Origin: a virus
DNA length: 64,000 nt
IMG/VR virus record: IMGVR_UViG_3300042691_038416
Span: 1 to 64,000 of that record
Strand: one strand, 5' to 3'
Positions 58,339 through 63,652 of this stretch are shown piece by piece. The translations under genes were made by a program, and so were the position numbers. The notes under the pieces are model-generated. The model was not told where the DNA came from, did no database searches, and saw nothing but the letters and a program-made list of their open reading frames with translations. Each line of letters starts with the position of its first letter. Positions within the stretch are counted from its first letter, which is position 1.

Positions 58339-58542
58339 TTATTCGTTTATTAATATTTTTCTAGTTGAAACTCGTACTGCGGGGTGATTTACTCCTGCGC
58401 GTTTGCGCTCTGGAATATATCTACCATGTTTTGGTCTGTCAAATTTTCTTAGCACTGATGTTTGATAACGAGTGTGCATGTGTGATGTTTGACATGATGT
58501 GATGATCACTGTGGTGATTAATAATAGAATAAATTTTTTCAT
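58339..58542 (-). CDS. Small basic lipoprotein
   Basis: MKKFILLLITTVIITSC lipobox; own promoter. Confidence 0.7.
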   Translation of the reverse strand: MKKFILLLITTVIITSCQTSHMHTRYQTSVLRKFDRPKHGRYIPERKRAGVNHPAVRVSTRKILINE

Positions 58543-58890
58543 AACTTTTATTTTTATTTAATATATAAAATGGGGTCCTGGAAGCCAAGCAGTATATACT
58601 TTGTCGACGGTGAAAGATTTTTAAAAGGAAAGATTTTGGTTTTTATGGGGAGATATCAAAAGGGGTTAAATGGAAATTGTGGGATTTATTTCTGTTTTTT
58701 GATAAGTTTATCATGGGGTAGAAATGGATAGGTTTAATATATAAATATATACAATCGAGCCGCACTATACGTTTAAGATCTAAAAATTAATGATATTCCC
58801 GTTTGCCCAACACGTACCGTTATATGGATAATAACGCGCGTGGTGCTATAATACAGGCGTATATGTACGTACGTACACGCCCAGGAGTAC

Positions 58891-58932
58891 GGAGGTGGGA
58901 CCTTACGGTCCCGCCCTCCTATAACACACACA
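58891..58932 (-). repeat. Hairpin plus GU-rich element, copy 1
   Basis: GGAGG-TGGGACC/GGTCCCG-CCTCC hairpin; CGCCCTCCTATAACACACACA (58912-58932) matches 62244-62264 at 20/21 nt. Confidence 0.7.
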
Positions 58933-58940
58933 ATTTCTAA

Positions 58941-59324
58941 TTACGCGTTTTCAGTGCTCGCAACTTCCGCATGTGCGGTGCTCTCACTGTTACGGCTTGG
59001 GCGACCACGTTTAACTTCAGCACCCGATGTTTTTGCTGCTAGTGCCTGTTGACGTTTACTGTTTACATTCACCGGACGGCCTTTACTTAGTGTTCCACCT
59101 GCTGCTACTTTCTCAGCACGTGCCGCTAGTACTGCTTGACGTTTCGATCCTGCTACAGCTGGTCTACCGCGTTTCAATTCTCCCGCTGCACGTTTTGCTT
59201 CACGGTCGGCGATTTTCTTCTGGCGAGCGCTCTCAGGATTTGCTGGACGGCCCAATGCTTTTGCTACGTTTGTTTCTACGTTCGCTACTGCTTTTTCTGT
59301 TGATACTGATTTTTTCTTGCTCAT
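58941..59324 (-). CDS. AT-hook repeat DNA-binding protein
   Basis: Four GRP cores (LGRP, KRGRP, KGRP, KRGRP), the first three followed by S[AK]RQ; paralogue of 61605..61904. Confidence 0.7.
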   Translation of the reverse strand: MSKKKSVSTEKAVANVETNVAKALGRPANPESARQKKIADREAKRAAGELKRGRPAVAGSKRQAVLAARAEKVAAGGTLSKGRPVNVNSKRQQALAAKTSGAEVKRGRPSRNSESTAHAEVASTENA

Positions 59325-59398
59325 GCGATTTGTGTTTTTTAATTATTAATTATTTATTTATTTTATTTACTGAATATATGATTAAGGTTCTTGATAGC

Positions 59399-59542
59399 CT
59401 AGCGCTTAATTGCATCATATAATTCTGCTATGTTTACTATAACCCACAATGTTAACATAACAGGAATTGCAGTCGGGTGTGATTGGTGTATTGGGCTGTT
59501 CCAAACCAAATAAAATAAAATGTAGGCGATGATGTCTTTCAT
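59399..59542 (-). CDS. Small membrane protein
   Basis: Not in ORF track. 47 aa MKDIIAYILFYLVWNSPIHQSHPTAIPVMLTLWVIVNIAELYDAIKR; own promoter; AAACACATG start. Confidence 0.7.
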   Translation of the reverse strand: MKDIIAYILFYLVWNSPIHQSHPTAIPVMLTLWVIVNIAELYDAIKR

Positions 59543-59608
59543 GTGTTTAAATGTTTTAAATTATACTTAAATATATGATACTAAATTCTGTTTACCTAGC
59601 AGTAGGCG

Positions 59609-59872
59609 TTAACTGTTTGTTAACGCCATTTTAATTTCCTCCAACTGTTTAACCAACTTACTGGCATCGCCTTTTAATCCAAAATATGTCTTCACATTAC
59701 TTATTTTCCAGTGGCGATTCGGTTTAATTCCTTTAGCGTATAAACTGCAGTCACGGATGCTTAAAATCAGGTTCCAGTACCCCATAGGCATTACATTACC
59801 ATTTACATTCACCGTTCTTGATTCGTCGGTCATGTCTTTAAAGAATTGTGTGTTTGAGCTAAGTGTTATCAT
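59609..59872 (-). CDS. Hypothetical early protein
   Basis: 87 aa; own promoter; AAAACACATG start. Confidence 0.7.
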   Translation of the reverse strand: MITLSSNTQFFKDMTDESRTVNVNGNVMPMGYWNLILSIRDCSLYAKGIKPNRHWKISNVKTYFGLKGDASKLVKQLEEIKMALTNS

Positions 59873-59910
59873 GTGTTTTAATTTTTTAATTTACCTAAAT
59901 ATAAGTTAAC

Positions 59911-60099
59911 TCACTCCGAGACCCTAGCGGCGCGCTTATCCTTCACCATCGCCGCTAGTTCGACTAACATGTTCGGGTACCTTATAAATGTAGCTGCTGC
60001 TGTCTCTGCTACCTCGCGGGACGTCTCTGGGTACACGAACATGATGTCTGTGATCAAATCCTCGAGCACCATATCAATCTGTTTGTTATTCAAAAGCAC
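59911..60099 (-). CDS. Hypothetical early protein
   Basis: 62 aa; GTG start overlapping upstream lipoprotein end. Confidence 0.5.
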   Translation of the reverse strand: MLLNNKQIDMVLEDLITDIMFVYPETSREVAETAAATFIRYPNMLVELAAMVKDKRAARVSE

Positions 60100-60265
60100 A
60101 GTATTGAGTATTTACGTTAGACAATTTGTGGCGGCTATAATAAGCCTGTTTAGACGATGAACATGATGTCATTGCCATCATAATCGCTAGAATAATTAGT
60201 GTAGCAGTAGCTGCTTGAAATGTTGACATCACTAGATGTTGTGTGAAATTTAAAGCTTTTTTCAT
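60086..60265 (-). CDS. Small lipoprotein
   Basis: Not in ORF track. 59 aa MKKALNFTQHLV...IILAIMMAMTSCSSSKQ...; lipobox MTSC; own promoter. Confidence 0.65.
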   Translation of the reverse strand: MKKALNFTQHLVMSTFQAATATLIILAIMMAMTSCSSSKQAYYSRHKLSNVNTQYCAFE

Positions 60266-60319
60266 GTGTTTATGTTTTTAAATTATTTTACTAAATATAA
60301 ATTATATTATTAAATAATC

Positions 60320-60598
60320 CTAGCGCTGCCACTCAGCAGCTGTCCCCCAGTACTCAATACAAAACGAATCACATCTGGTAATTTGCATCTTATATCCCTC
60401 AGTTTGCTTATAAAATTCAAGTGCGGCGATTGAATCTTTAGTGTCCATAATAAAAAAGTTGGTGGTGATTGACCCTGATACATCCTGGCCACCATAAAGT
60501 TTAGCCTTATTTATGAAAGACGCTTTATACATGTGTCCATCTTTCTTACAGGCAGTCATACTTAAAATTGCAAACGCGATAACGGCTAATTTTTTCAT
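60320..60598 (-). CDS. Lipoprotein
   Basis: MKKLAVIAFAILSMTAC lipobox; paralogue of 60645..60914 (TTxF...YKxT...DS..IxYWGT..EW). Confidence 0.75.
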   Translation of the reverse strand: MKKLAVIAFAILSMTACKKDGHMYKASFINKAKLYGGQDVSGSITTNFFIMDTKDSIAALEFYKQTEGYKMQITRCDSFCIEYWGTAAEWQR

Positions 60599-60644
60599 GT
60601 GCTTTTTATTTTTGTTTGAATATAAGTTAATGGACCTGGTGATC

Positions 60645-60914
60645 CTATCTACCTTGTGCTTTCCACTCCTTGCGAGTACCCCAATATGTGATTGTAACTG
60701 AGTCTGACTTAGGCATCAGTTCCTTAAACACAGACGTTTCCTTATACCAGTCCCAGCAGGCGGTATCTTCCTTAGACACGTGAATAAAATCTGTTGTCAC
60801 TAACATGCCTGTGTTTTCTAACTCCTGGTAGTAGGCGACCTCGTAAACATATTTTTTGCTAGCGCATGAGGCGAAGATTGAAGATGATATAATAATAATA
60901 ATTAATTTTTTCAT
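60645..60914 (-). CDS. Lipoprotein (internal start within the long ORF)
   Basis: MKKLIIIIISSSIFASC lipobox at 60914; degenerate promoter at 60935-60961; paralogue of 60320..60598. Confidence 0.65.
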   Translation of the reverse strand: MKKLIIIIISSSIFASCASKKYVYEVAYYQELENTGMLVTTDFIHVSKEDTACWDWYKETSVFKELMPKSDSVTITYWGTRKEWKAQGR

Positions 60915-61523
60915 ATAATTTTTAATTTTAGATGAACATAGGATAAAAGAATCTGCTTCCCTAGCAGGTACTCCCTCGGGCTCAAAGTACCAGCGCTGGT
61001 TATTATAATCTGCTATTTTATTTACCTCGGCAAGTTCACCGTAGGAATTTTTTACGTGCTCAAAGATCATCTTATAGTCTGGCGAATCACCTGGTATCAC
61101 GCCTCCTAAGAGGTCGGCGAACCTAGAGTTTGAGGCATCGACGGTCTCTTGATCCGCAGACACCCCACAGTAACTAGCCTCTTTAACCTCGCTGATAAAC
61201 ATCCCAGTGTAGAGACCTTTTAGGCGGTGCCGTCCGACAAATTGATCTGCGTTGCACCAGATGAAAATACAGTGCTTGTCTCTTAAAAGTGGAACCTGCT
61301 TTTCTCCTACGGCATATAATCCTTCGCCTATCCTAGAGACATTCATCAATCCATAAGGTGTCCCGTGGCCCATCATCAAAATTTGATCGTGCGAGCGGAT
61401 TTCCTTCTCCAGACGGTGTCTAGAAACTCCTTTTGTTAACACAGTAGCACCCTCTAGGCCGCTGTAGATAGGGCGAAGAAAATCTGTTGATCGATCGTCT
61501 GGATGAATGATTAAGGTTTTCAT
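60645..61523 (-). CDS. Hypothetical enzyme-like protein in frame with the downstream lipoprotein
   Basis: Start reassigned to MKTLIIHP (61523) after the promoter at 61547; MMGHG and IWCNA suggest a His/Cys (CHAT/caspase-like) pair. Confidence 0.5.
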   Translation of the reverse strand: MKTLIIHPDDRSTDFLRPIYSGLEGATVLTKGVSRHRLEKEIRSHDQILMMGHGTPYGLMNVSRIGEGLYAVGEKQVPLLRDKHCIFIWCNADQFVGRHRLKGLYTGMFISEVKEASYCGVSADQETVDASNSRFADLLGGVIPGDSPDYKMIFEHVKNSYGELAEVNKIADYNNQRWYFEPEGVPAREADSFILCSSKIKNYMKKLIIIIISSSIFASCASKKYVYEVAYYQELENTGMLVTTDFIHVSKEDTACWDWYKETSVFKELMPKSDSVTITYWGTRKEWKAQGR

Positions 61524-61604
61524 AGGCTGTAATTTTATAATTATTAAATATAAGGCGAGGGGTAAGGGGACCCTAACCGGGTCCCTTCCCTTTACTTTAA
61601 CCAA

Positions 61605-61904
61605 TTAACCTCTTTCTAATTCAACAACATCTGAATTATTCTTCTTGGCTAACGCTACTTGGCGCTTTGAATTTACATTAACCGGCCTTCCCTTCTTAAG
61701 CTCAATTCCATTACTAACCTTCTCATTACGCTTCTTAATAATTTCTTGGCGCTTAGATCCCTCAATAACTGGGCGACCTCGTTTCAACAACCCCGCCTCT
61801 CGTTTGGCGTTACGATCTTGAATTTTCATTTGACGTGCACTGTTTGGATTAGCTGGACGTCCTTTTTGTTTTGTTTCTGTGGTGTTTGTGATTGTGTTTT
61901 TCAT
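61605..61904 (-). CDS. AT-hook repeat DNA-binding protein
   Basis: KGRP, KRGRP, KKGRP, each followed by S[AK]RQ. Confidence 0.7.
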   Translation of the reverse strand: MKNTITNTTETKQKGRPANPNSARQMKIQDRNAKREAGLLKRGRPVIEGSKRQEIIKKRNEKVSNGIELKKGRPVNVNSKRQVALAKKNNSDVVELERG

Positions 61905-61981
61905 AACCTTTTTTTTTAATTGTTTTTATTATTTATTTTTTAACATTTTAAATATATGTAACTGAACCCTGAAATCCTAAC

Positions 61982-62137
61982 TTAAAATTGAATCAAATCA
62001 ATTGCTTTTGTTCCAATACTTTTCCCATTCTTATAAACCCAATAATTTGGATCCATACCTGATGCCATGATGTCATCTAATAATTCATGAATGGTGTTGA
62101 ATTTCTTTTTGTAATACTTACAGTTGAGTGTGTACAT
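61982..62137 (-). CDS. Small hypothetical early protein
   Basis: Not in ORF track. 51 aa MYTLNCKYYKKKFNTIHELLDDIMASGMDPNY...; own promoter. Confidence 0.65.
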   Translation of the reverse strand: MYTLNCKYYKKKFNTIHELLDDIMASGMDPNYWVYKNGKSIGTKAIDLIQF

Positions 62138-62225
62138 ATCTTATTTTTCTTTTATTTAAATATAAGTAACAGGATCCTGTATGCCTAACCTGGCCTTAAA
62201 AATGGAAATAAACGTTTTAAAAAGC

Positions 62226-62270
62226 GGAGAGCGCCCACAACAGCGCCCTCCTAAAACACACACATGAAAA
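62226..62270 (-). repeat. Hairpin plus GU-rich element, copy 2 (candidate antisense sRNA)
   Basis: GGAG-A-GCGC/GCGC-C-CTCC hairpin; minus-strand RNA reads UUUUCAUGUGUGUGUUUUAGGAGGGCG. Confidence 0.6.
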
Positions 62271-62286
62271 TCACTATAAACACTAG

Positions 62287-62385
62287 TCGCTGAGGTGAGA
62301 TTCGAACTCACATTTTCTACTCTGGCCTTAACCGCGGGTTGACCTTTTTCGAGGTGTTATCCATTTAATTTTACACTACTCAGCT
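62287..62385 (-). ncRNA. tRNA-like RNA with aberrant anticodon/variable region
   Basis: Acceptor GCTGAG/CTCAGC, U8A9, D stem GTGT/ACAC, perfect T arm GTGAG-TTCGAAT-CTCAC; 41-nt non-canonical central region. Confidence 0.65.
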
Positions 62386-62386
62386 T

Positions 62387-62446
62387 GGCTCTGCCTCTTA
62401 TGAGGTGGCTTTATACATCAGCCTTGGGTCTCAAACCCTCAGAACC
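62387..62446 (-). ncRNA. Compact four-way-junction (cloverleaf-like) RNA
   Basis: 7-bp GGUUCUG/CAGAGCC closing three hairpins (GGGU/ACCC, GGCU/AGCC, CCUC/GAGG); no TTC loop. Confidence 0.5.
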
Positions 62447-62482
62447 TGAATTGGCCCGTCGGCCCCATCCGTCGATGGTTTG

Positions 62483-62555
62483 TTGCGGAGACAGGAATCG
62501 AACCTGTGACCTCCAGGTTATGAGCCTGGCGAGCTACCTCTGCTACCACTCCGCG
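62483..62555 (-). tRNA. tRNA-Met(CAT), initiator-like
   Basis: CGCGGAG/CTCCGCA acceptor with C1:A72 mismatch; anticodon arm CCAGG-CTCATAA-CCTGG; T loop TTCGATT; CCA not encoded. Confidence 0.9.
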
Positions 62556-62566
62556 ATATTTCTTTG

Positions 62567-62651
62567 TACTCGGGGCGGGGGTCGAACCCGCACGGCCTCT
62601 TCGGCCAAGGGATTTTAAGTCCCTCGTGTATACCAGTTTCACCACCCGAGC
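62567..62651 (-). tRNA. tRNA-Leu(TAA)
   Basis: GCTCGGG/CCCGAGT acceptor; AGGGA-CTTAAAA-TCCCT anticodon arm; long variable arm GGCC/GGCC; CCA not encoded. Confidence 0.93.
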
Positions 62652-62657
62652 ATACTT

Positions 62658-62894
62658 TTAATTCACATTCACTTCAATCGTACCTAACATCTCTGACTCT
62701 AACACTTCTAAAACACACTCTACTATGTGAACCTTCCTTGGCTCTAACTTTGGCTTTAACCCTGGCTCTACTCCCAGTACTTCATTTAATATTTCTAATA
62801 ATTCCTCTGGCTCTAAGCCCACTATATTCATTACTGTTTCCACTGGATGGCCTGCGGCTATCATTTGGAGTGCTGTGTGTGATTTGTTTTTCAT
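62658..62894 (-). CDS. Small acidic HTH-like protein
   Basis: 78 aa; GHPVETVMNIVGLEPEEL; own promoter, which probably also drives the tRNA cluster. Confidence 0.55.
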   Translation of the reverse strand: MKNKSHTALQMIAAGHPVETVMNIVGLEPEELLEILNEVLGVEPGLKPKLEPRKVHIVECVLEVLESEMLGTIEVNVN

Positions 62895-62948
62895 AACCTT
62901 TTTTTCTTATAAATTAAATATATGAAGCTGGATTTTGAAAGCCAAATC

Positions 62949-63155
62949 TTACTTTGAAAGAATTTCTTGAATTTCTTGTTTAACAGAATCAGACATTGGT
63001 GCCCCTGAAGTTTCATAACACCACAATAATTGTTTAGCCAACAATTTTTTGTCCTGTAATGAAATGTTGTCGTTCCATTTTAGTAATCCTGTAATTGTTC
63101 CTGTCATGTAACTTGAAAGTGAACTTAAGGTGAAATACTTTTCAGCGTAATCCAT
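62949..63155 (-). CDS. Hypothetical early protein
   Basis: 68 aa; own promoter. Confidence 0.65.
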   Translation of the reverse strand: MDYAEKYFTLSSLSSYMTGTITGLLKWNDNISLQDKKLLAKQLLWCYETSGAPMSDSVKQEIQEILSK

Positions 63156-63313
63156 AGTGTCTTTGTGTTTTTTATTATGATTAAATATATGAAGTTGAAT
63201 CTAGTAAGCCAAATTTGGGGGTATATCCTTATATCTCTTGTATAGGGGAGAAGGGGGCGGGATCGCAACAGGGGGGTTACCTTACCACCACTCTCCTATC
63301 ACCCATTCATCTC

Positions 63314-63374
63314 CACACCTGTCACATACTATACTTATATACATATTTGTTTATATTGTTATAGGACAGGTGTG
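63314..63374. repeat. 10-bp inverted repeat flanking an AT-rich spacer
   Basis: CACACCTGTC (63314-63323) and GACAGGTGTG (63365-63374). Confidence 0.7.
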
Positions 63375-63385
63375 ACATACGTTTG

Positions 63386-63601
63386 TCACCCATTTCTCTC
63401 CATCTCATCCACTTTATCTTGAATCTGCTCCATTAGGATTGGATCACTTATCTCATATCCACTTTTGGTCCTCAATGTACAATCAATCACTTTACCTTCC
63501 TCATTCAACCATTCTTTATAGAACACCACCTCACCTGTTTCAAGTTGAAATCGATATTCCGCCTCTGTCACTGTTGATTTACTTGTGAATAATAGTTCCA
63601 T
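63386..63601 (-). CDS. Hypothetical early protein
   Basis: 71 aa; own promoter; AAAAACACATG start. Confidence 0.65.
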   Translation of the reverse strand: MELLFTSKSTVTEAEYRFQLETGEVVFYKEWLNEEGKVIDCTLRTKSGYEISDPILMEQIQDKVDEMERNG

Positions 63602-63652
63602 GTGTTTTTATTTTTTATTTGAATTGAATATATGTTATCCTACTTTGTAAGC

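Follow-up and report, generated by a model that had tools for sequence, protein, structure and literature searches.

In enterobacteria, DapZ, a small RNA (sRNA) derived from a 3′ untranslated region (3′UTR), directs a G/U seed against CA-rich enhancers. GcvB silences an enhancer-like C/A-rich leader by means of a G/U-rich seed (PMC3879156). An arrangement resembling both is described here for the 64 kb at the start of a virus record of 124,139 bp and 30% G+C (IMG/VR record IMGVR_UViG_3300042691_038416, positions 1 to 64,000; this whole stretch is called the window below). A 21-nt repeat is present in two copies on the minus strand, and the second of these, copy 2, has an open GU-rich stretch beside an intrinsic terminator, mirrored by CA-rich sequence just upstream of several start codons. 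The best single reading of copy 2, still a tentative one, is that it gives rise to a trans-acting sRNA directed against the starts of early genes. Unlike GcvB, to which it has no sequence or family relation, such an RNA would be encoded by a phage and aimed at the phage's own genes; its mirror includes the AUG itself, and the type of host in which it would act does not use Shine–Dalgarno (SD) sequences.

In its location in the window, between the last tRNA-type gene and the operon terminator, where tRNA processing can set an RNA free, copy 2 is similar to 3′ETS-leuZ of E. coli and to RNAC and RNAD of phage T4. 3′ETS-leuZ serves as a sponge for other sRNAs, unlike the role proposed for copy 2, and RNAC and RNAD differ from it in that they are structured, 119–139 nt in length, and have no known targets. 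Copy 2 is also distinct from RNAs of tRNA spacers in that the module follows an open reading frame (ORF) in one relative. The tRNA region of T4 yields two small RNAs of unknown role, and the 2010 T4 review states that T4 had no characterised regulatory RNA acting in trans (PMC3014915). With respect to function, the proposed RNA would be comparable to RegA and RegB of T4, by which early-message translation is likewise switched off at start regions, but these are proteins. A cis form of such control exists in the T4 genes e, soc, 49, and I-TevI, whose start regions pair with a mirror sequence lying upstream (PMC3014915), whereas pairing of copy 2 in cis with its adjacent gene is unsupported in the window. 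Finally, like the PeSL elements, copy 2 is a terminator stem-loop joined to a putative early promoter at a homology breakpoint; unlike them, which occur in many copies and are defined by promoter and stem-loop, the 21-mer is found twice and has a fixed single-stranded tail that mirrors gene starts (PMC2839356). In the literature searched, whose supplementary lists lay outside the scope, no phage RNA of this kind was found in print, and the text of a 2025 review of phage-derived sRNAs contains none of the terms tRNA, 'lytic phage', 'phage T4', or Bacteroid-.

Copy 2 as a conserved 3′-end module

The 21-mer, CGCCCTCCTAWAACACACACA, is found in the window only at 58912–58932 (copy 1) and 62244–62264 (copy 2; plus-strand coordinates), even when up to three mismatches are allowed. 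The two copies are identical at 20 of 21 positions. Throughout the whole 124,139-bp record there are two forward and no reverse matches at up to two mismatches, and in none of 100 dinucleotide shuffles did two matches arise. Both copies reside in 3′ non-coding stretches of the minus (coding) strand and run into hairpins, so that the duplicated element reported in a preliminary description of this DNA, made from the sequence alone, is confirmed at both sites and nowhere else.

Copy 2 (62216–62273, minus strand) reads CUAGUGUUUAUAGUGAUUUUCAUGUGUGUGUUUUA, followed by the hairpin GGAGGGCGC/GCGCUCUCC and then GCUUUUU. The tail, at 62252–62273 (UGAUUUUCAUGUGUGUGUUUUA), is GU-rich and unpaired in the fold; it is the candidate seed and is antisense to starts of the AAAACAC(AC)AUGAAAA type. 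The terminator hairpin, at 62226–62251, consists of 10 pairs, 7 of them G–C, with a loop of 6–8 nt, and is followed by the U-run tail GCUUUUUAAA at 62216–62225. Copy 2 is the best-ranked match of the terminator scan and has the make-up of an intrinsic terminator. Its fold has a predicted energy of −21.5 kcal/mol (z −2.6), and a 57-nt block, trimmed to what relatives conserve, folds into a 22-nt open tail and a 10-bp hairpin with a U-run (−19.8 kcal/mol, z −3.1). Upstream of copy 2 there are, in order, genes for tRNA-Leu(UAA) and tRNA-Met(CAU) (62482–62651, minus strand), a 96-nt spacer (62386–62481), and a tRNA-like RNA (62287–62385, minus strand) that carries a 33-nt insert at the anticodon arm and whose 3′ end, at 62287, adjoins the copy-2 trailer. 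The tRNA-like RNA scores 28.1 bits with the Rfam tRNA model, just below the gathering score of 29, and is not called by ARAGORN. Apart from tRNA, Rfam gives no match in 58500–63400 at E ≤ 1 and none in the window at gathering scores, the GcvB model being unmatched. Downstream of the terminator and still within the conserved module lies a promoter-like site, TAGGCA N17 TATATT (62159–62187, minus strand), of the next gene, which starts at 62137. Thus placed, copy 2 forms the 3′ end of what is taken to be an early array of tRNA and other non-coding RNA genes, and 17–22 nt of its tail are unpaired in the modelled structures.

Relatives of the element were found by exact-pattern scans of viral and metagenome contigs from uncultured phages. 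The 17-mer GTGTGTGTTWTAGGAGG matches 22 viral loci. Seven of these are relatives, 14 belong to an unrelated coding sequence, and the remaining one is of another kind; an 18-mer matches at least 119 metagenome stretches, with 11 related ones among the matches listed. Type A has the hairpin of the window and comprises eight distinct sequences. An alignment of these contains an unbroken run of 50 invariant columns that begins at UU-UCAUG and extends to the U-run, only 17–19 of which were fixed by the search patterns. The upstream flanks of these sequences are unrelated, being different tRNAs, tRNA-like genes, or other sequence, and the downstream sequence, into the next promoter, drifts. Types B and C have other hairpin sequences, AGGAGGCG/CGCCUCCU and GGAGGGUGCUG/CAGCGCCUUCC, respectively, which still fold, and both keep (U/A)UCAUGUGUGUGUUUUAGGAGG. 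Type D, represented by L158, was obtained at one of eight loci in a search on a neighbouring 51-aa protein; here the tail follows the stop codon of an ORF, lacks AGGAGG, and runs into the hairpin GGGCCC/GGGCCC. (U/A)UCAUGUGUGUGUUUUA is kept in all four versions of copy 2, the tail being joined to three hairpins other than that of the window. When the search was anchored on the hairpin and the tail left free, three of eight loci were related, and all three had the same tail.

Copy 2 is a real, conserved, and portable 3′-end RNA module that is under selection. Its open tail, its terminator, and its position after a tRNA-like gene partly support the view that it is a small RNA cut from the end of a longer transcript. 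Ends of tRNA type precede the module in six further sequences (L003, L004, L005, L011, L016, and L021), and no tRNA is called near several metagenome copies. The preliminary proposal that tRNA processing releases the RNA fits the window, where the module follows the tRNA-like gene, but such processing is not a fixed feature, because the type-D relative has the tail behind an ORF instead.

A large metagenome family of intergenic elements that shares the 18-mer was set aside as unrelated: it is located between convergent genes of a GC-rich bacterium and has no Rfam match. Its members (e.g., L092 4788–4805, L056, L063, and L100) consist of a variable terminator hairpin followed by UGUGUGUUGUGUGUGUUUUAGGAGGGAGAAAUCGCAUCGGG, and the one in L092 lies between convergent ABC-ATPase and MATE-type genes.

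Early gene starts and the copy-2 tail

The phage to which the window belongs is distantly T4-like and probably infects Flavobacteriia. Matches to phage families were obtained for its portal, large terminase, and baseplate proteins, and the large terminase shares 59% identity with its counterpart in Flavobacterium phage vB_FspM_immuto, the nearest cultured relative, T4-type phages being more distant. The minus strand carries 176 of the 186 called genes. A tetramer resembling an SD sequence is present in only 10 of 179 start regions, A accounts for ~60% of positions −5 to −15, and a promoter-like motif, TTTGGCT/TTAGGC with (C/T)ATATATTTA ~17–20 nt further on, precedes 42 of the 179 genes. The −33/−7 promoter of Bacteroidetes, TTTG/TAnnTTTG, is similar, but its last G is mostly A in the phage; in F. 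johnsoniae, SD sequences are absent and initiation is tuned by upstream adenines and structure (PMC6847099). Given the terminase relationship, the scarcity of SD sequences, the A-rich leaders, and the Bacteroidetes-like promoter motif, the host is presumed to belong to Flavobacteriia, and the small genes with promoters at 58.5–77 kb are regarded as early ones. Megablast and blastn searches of the region against deposited phages returned tRNA matches only, and PHROGs offered no family for the seven small early proteins tried, including both proteins with RGRP repeats (see below). To our knowledge, hosts of this type have no Hfq.

A CA-type leader, defined as A[A/G]CAC within 6 nt of the AUG, is found at 9 of the 179 genes, all of them at 59.5–76.1 kb, and the promoter-like motif stands before 7 of the 9. 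The AC-rich starts listed in the preliminary description are all as it gave them: AAACAC-ATG at 59542, 59872, 60265, and 63601, AAAGCAC-ATG at 60598, and AAAAACACAAA before the starts at 59324 and 63155. The complementarities of 9–11 nt that it claimed for copy 2 are likewise exact without exception. The longest, a perfect match of 11 nt to the tail, is at the AAACAC-AUG start at 60263–60271; matches of 10 nt are found at 59540–59548 and at the AAAGCAC-AUG start of a lipoprotein-like gene (60596–60605), and those at 59870–59878 and 63599–63607 extend over 9 and 8 nt (all minus strand, AAACAC-AUG where not stated otherwise).

Beyond these individual matches, the 21-nt tail of copy 2 was paired in silico with the 179 start regions (−25 to +15), 12 of which reached a threshold of −13.5 kcal/mol. 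With 300 dinucleotide shuffles of the tail, 4.1 ± 3.0 regions did so, and 7 of the 300 reached 12, while random windows of the same strand averaged 3.2 ± 1.9, and none of 20 such sets exceeded 7. Nearly all of the strongest partners lie within the early region at 59.3–76.1 kb. The same threshold was applied to parts of three element-bearing relatives, giving 14 of 91 start regions in G004 (type A; matched by 0 of 200 shuffles), 11 of 51 in G005 (type B; 6 of 200), and 4 of 46 in G003 (type D; 8 of 200), results that are not fully independent because the three are related to the window phage. In all four phages, the tail pairs with start regions at roughly three times the rate of its shuffles. 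G005 has many longer CA leaders, such as AAAAACACACAC-AUG, and one of its starts is a perfect mirror of the tail over 14 nt. Starts with at least eight contiguous pairs to the tail number 11 of 186, 8 of 92, 11 of 51, and 4 of 46 in the phages that bear the element, as compared with 2 of 208 in G002 and 3 of 147 in G001, which have neither the element nor CA-type leaders; in these two related phages (95% and 76% complete), AAACACATG occurs once and not at all, respectively.

Were copy 2 to act as a trans-acting sRNA, transcription from the early promoter before gene 62894 would proceed through the RNA array and stop at the copy-2 terminator, after which a stable RNA of ~55–70 nt would be released, either by tRNA-type 3′ processing of the tRNA-like gene (62287) or by some other cleavage close to the point where conservation sharply begins. 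Its open tail, UUUCAUGUGUGUGUUUUA, mirrors the CA-rich leader and the AUG of a subset of early genes. Pairing over both would block the ribosome, in a host that is expected to initiate on unstructured A-rich leaders without SD sequences, and the RNA, as it accumulates, would impose a delayed brake on the CA-type early proteins.

A number of observations count against this proposal. The best single duplex of the tail, at −18.2 kcal/mol, is unexceptional, being reached by 49 of the 300 shuffles; what stands out is an excess at the level of the class, in low-complexity sequence, and the hypothesis was framed on the same complementarity, which makes the test a post hoc one. Most leaders of the window phage have a shorter CA repeat than the one mirrored by the tail. 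None of the 9-mers common to at least three starts has an exact mirror in the tail, and an unbiased scan for 9-mer mirrors is dominated by A/T-rich matches and does not single out the GU tail. Exact 11-mer mirrors of gene starts show no genome-wide excess over the control (18 vs 17, 28 vs 23, and 4 vs 4). The CA-type genes are only 9 of 179; the commonest leader class, AAGGTT/AAAGTT, comprises 25 and has no mirror on the coding strand, where CATAACCTT gives 0 matches. The tail of copy 1 pairs at −13.5 kcal/mol or better with 1 of 179 start regions, no better than chance. Furthermore, part of the tail was fixed in the patterns by which most relatives were detected, and variants of the tail would therefore be missed. 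The types also have unlike sequences 5′ of the tail (UUUUCAUG vs UUAUCAUG), with no matching change in the targets' second codons, so that the covariation between seed and targets suggested as a check is not seen there. Taken as a whole, pairing above shuffled controls is seen for the class in four phages, in a post hoc test, and not for the best single duplex. The broader claim that a small RNA shuts off a whole class of early mRNAs draws support from the anatomy and conservation of copy 2 and from the pairing excess, and is weakened by the small size of the class and the lack of a mirror for the largest one.

The role of copy 1 is overstated in the preliminary description. The stop codon that precedes this copy belongs to the gene of a 127-aa protein in which four RGRP repeats (AT-hook-like) are present and of which a 99-aa paralogue is encoded at 61605–61904. 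Copy 1 reads AAAUUGUGUGUGUUAUA, and its GU-rich stretch (58920–58940, minus strand), in the 3′UTR of the RGRP-repeat gene, has no CAU in the window phage, whereas relatives read AAAUGUGUGUGUUAUAGG. The 29-nt hairpin that comes next (58891–58919, minus strand), GGAGG-GC-GGGACC GUAA GGUCCC-A-CCUCC, has a GUAA loop and a predicted energy of −22.6 kcal/mol (z −3.29). No U-run follows it, and the make-up of an intrinsic terminator is thus restricted to copy 2. Copy 1 is conserved in L003, L024, and L110, with AUG where the window has UUG, and alignment with the same three sequences defines a GC-rich non-coding block directly after it (58780–58890, minus strand; GC 0.39–0.50 vs 0.30 for the genome), within a gene-free stretch of ~400 nt (58543–58940). 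Copy 1 is probably the 5′ edge of this different conserved block and would contribute the same tail only to a minor extent, if at all. The first ~130 nt after copy 1 are GC-rich and highly conserved, with ~40 nt that are 100% identical (ACCACGCGCGUUAUUAUCCAUAUAACGGUACGUGUUGGG) and a hairpin of GUAC repeats; the block may encode a further non-coding RNA or serve as a site on the DNA, for instance an origin.

Between the two repeats (58800–62700), the G+C content is 0.33–0.53, as compared with 0.30 for the genome, and five of the nine CA-type (or near CA-type) starts are located here. A 292-aa ORF in this stretch (60645–61523, minus strand) has an internal start in frame, at 60914, after which comes a lipoprotein-type signal, MKKLIIIIISSSIFASC; the ORF looks like two genes in one frame, or a fusion.

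Other roles for the element

Among the alternatives, the one that survives best, doubtful as it is, holds that the tail is a cis-acting part of the 3′ end, either a site for an RNA-binding protein or nuclease of host or phage or a tuner of termination, 3′-end stability, or processing of the RNA array, and that its likeness to mirrored gene starts is an incidental outcome of low sequence complexity. Both copies have GUGUGUGUU(A/U)UAGGAGG at the 5′ foot of the hairpin, and CAU is present in copy 2 only; a role of this kind would also accommodate the chance-level pairing of copy 1 and the ordinary best duplex of copy 2. RbpB, a single-strand RNA-binding protein of Bacteroides, has been reported to bind the G/U/A motif GUAGGAUA in vitro, with UAGGA in common with the element, which offers a lead only (bioRxiv 10.1101/2021.04.27.441718). 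However, type D keeps the tail without AGGAGG and beside an unrelated hairpin, and the constant part is therefore the GU tract with CAU and not the shared 21-mer. A pure terminator has no need of a fixed upstream sequence. Moreover, a cis-acting 3′ end leaves unexplained the pairing excess in four phages, the contrast between own and foreign starts, and the occurrence of different mirrors in phages with different leaders.

It is unlikely that the element is mainly the recombination joint of a mobile regulatory cassette, with the repeats bordering a swappable gene block of 3.3 kb. Homology does end sharply at the 5′ edge of the block, where the upstream genes differ, and the block runs on into the promoter of the next gene; the repeats bracket the GC-richer stretch noted above, and in G004 the same two repeats are 4.28 kb apart, with partly different genes between them, as compared with 3.33 kb in the window. 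PeSLs, early promoters with terminator stem-loops that mediate modular shuffling, provide a precedent (PMC2839356). But the 21-mer has two copies only, against 42 of 179 genes with the promoter-like motif. For recombination, homology suffices, and 50 invariant bases beside drifting neighbours are not needed, nor is the mirroring of gene starts explained. It should be noted that acting as a joint and acting in trans as an sRNA are compatible with each other.

More improbable is that the tail works in cis on read-through transcripts, hiding the downstream start. The layout of mirror, hairpin, proximal promoter, and gene would fit, and T4 genes e, soc, 49, and I-TevI are precedents (PMC3014915). 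A related case comes from G002, in which two CAUAUCUCUC elements stand directly after stop codons; one of them, at L190 11905–11985, is predicted to pair with the GAGAGCAUAU-G of the gene that follows it, with a hairpin enclosed between the two strands (−25.9 kcal/mol, z −4.5, 0 of 200 shuffles) and is a candidate for a cis-sequestered start of the T4 gene e type. In the window, however, the next gene, starting at 62137, has no CA-type leader and is not among the 25 best partners of the tail, the nearest CA-type start being 1.65 kb downstream. The fold of 62110–62290 is no better than shuffles (z −1.55, 15 of 200), on which ground pairing in cis with that gene was rejected, and the partner in this fold is not conserved in relatives with other downstream genes.

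Least probable of all is that the element is coding. The plus-strand micro-gene MKITINTSR, whose AAAACACACACATGAAAA resembles the phage's own gene starts and whose 17-mer serves as a genuine gene start, in the opposite orientation, in unrelated phages (e.g., L160, L163, L174, and L179), had been raised as the reading that would undo the sRNA proposal, but the ORF varies between 4 and 45 codons in 13 sequences with only the first two residues conserved, no TATATTTA-type promoter is seen on the plus strand in the 100 nt before its ATG, and 176 of 186 genes are on the minus strand. A four-codon minus-strand ORF, AUG UGU GUG UUU UAG, whose translation would melt the terminator, is present as MCVF in 13 of 13 copy-2 sequences and as MCVL in 3 of 4 copy-1 sequences; still, it was largely fixed by the search patterns, probably arises of necessity whenever ACACAUG is mirrored (CAUG being self-complementary), lies in a U-rich context and not the A-rich one that the host type favours, and has UUG in place of AUG in copy 1 of the window. 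This mini-ORF spans 62252–62269 and 58920–58936 (minus strand), reads AUG/UUG UGU GUG UUA UAG in copy 1, and overlaps the foot of the hairpin with its stop codon.

Leader tags and mirrors in other lineages

Early leaders are specific to each lineage: G001 and L151 have AAAGGTT, G002 has AAGAGAGA, and both L152 and the group of the window phage have CA-repeats. In a wider view, L153, L154, L151, L152, and L157 each have a near-uniform pre-AUG motif of their own (AAAGGTT, AAGAGAGA(T), A(C/A)GGTT, CA-repeats, and AA(A/C)GAT), each preceded by a TATATTTA-type promoter, which suggests that promoter–leader cassettes spread within a genome.

Two of these lineages offer candidate mirrors of their leaders, located between genes of the early region. 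In G002, where leaders read AAGAGAGA-AUG, the coding strand has a single TTCTCTCTCTT against 12 copies of the complement, 10 of them in the early block at 8.1–13.9 kb. The single copy makes up the 15-nt loop of a terminator hairpin that has 11 bp and ends in a U6 tail, and this CU loop can pair over at least 8 nt with 17 of 208 G002 starts, compared with 0–1 in other phages. In G001, where leaders read AAAUAAAGGUU-AUG, one non-coding ACCUUUAUUU is set against seven early leaders reading AAAUAAAGGU. What detracts from both is that they were found by searching for complementarity; in G002, in addition, shuffles of the CU loop match the loop itself in 67 of 300 cases, a control that is uninformative because shuffled CU repeats are CU repeats still. 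With a complementarity-led search, uninformative shuffles, and no excess of 11-mer mirrors, the two are suggestive parallels and not proof. The early region of G002 has no match among deposited phages.

Other features of these genomes were recorded as well. Just upstream of the CU-loop terminator of G002, a gene-poor stretch of 1.1 kb contains ~15 copies of a TTTTTAGA-type repeat (L190 6090–6800), an iteron-like array that is possibly a replication origin. In G003 (L183 36155–36865), three small genes have the strong SD sequence AAGGAGGTGAGCA-ATG, which their neighbours lack, and may derive from a different kind of phage or host.

A broader proposal, which we put forward as a speculative one, is that T4-like phages of Bacteroidota time early protein synthesis by mirror RNAs. 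A leader tag characteristic of the lineage (CA-repeat, AG-repeat, or AAAGGUU) would take the place of the SD sequence, an RNA from a terminator module of the early region would mirror the tag together with the AUG by its open tail or loop, and the code of tag and mirror would co-evolve, copy 2 being the member for the CA tag and coming from the tRNA/ncRNA array. If so, copy 2 would be an RNA counterpart of the shut-off by RegA and RegB in T4. Should copy 2 act as the sRNA proposed above, it would be the first known case of a lytic phage silencing several of its early messages by a small RNA of its own. It would also provide a handle on how start regions are recognized and silenced in Bacteroidota, where neither SD pairing nor Hfq would be involved, and would suggest a function for the extra small RNAs packed in the tRNA clusters of T4-type phages.

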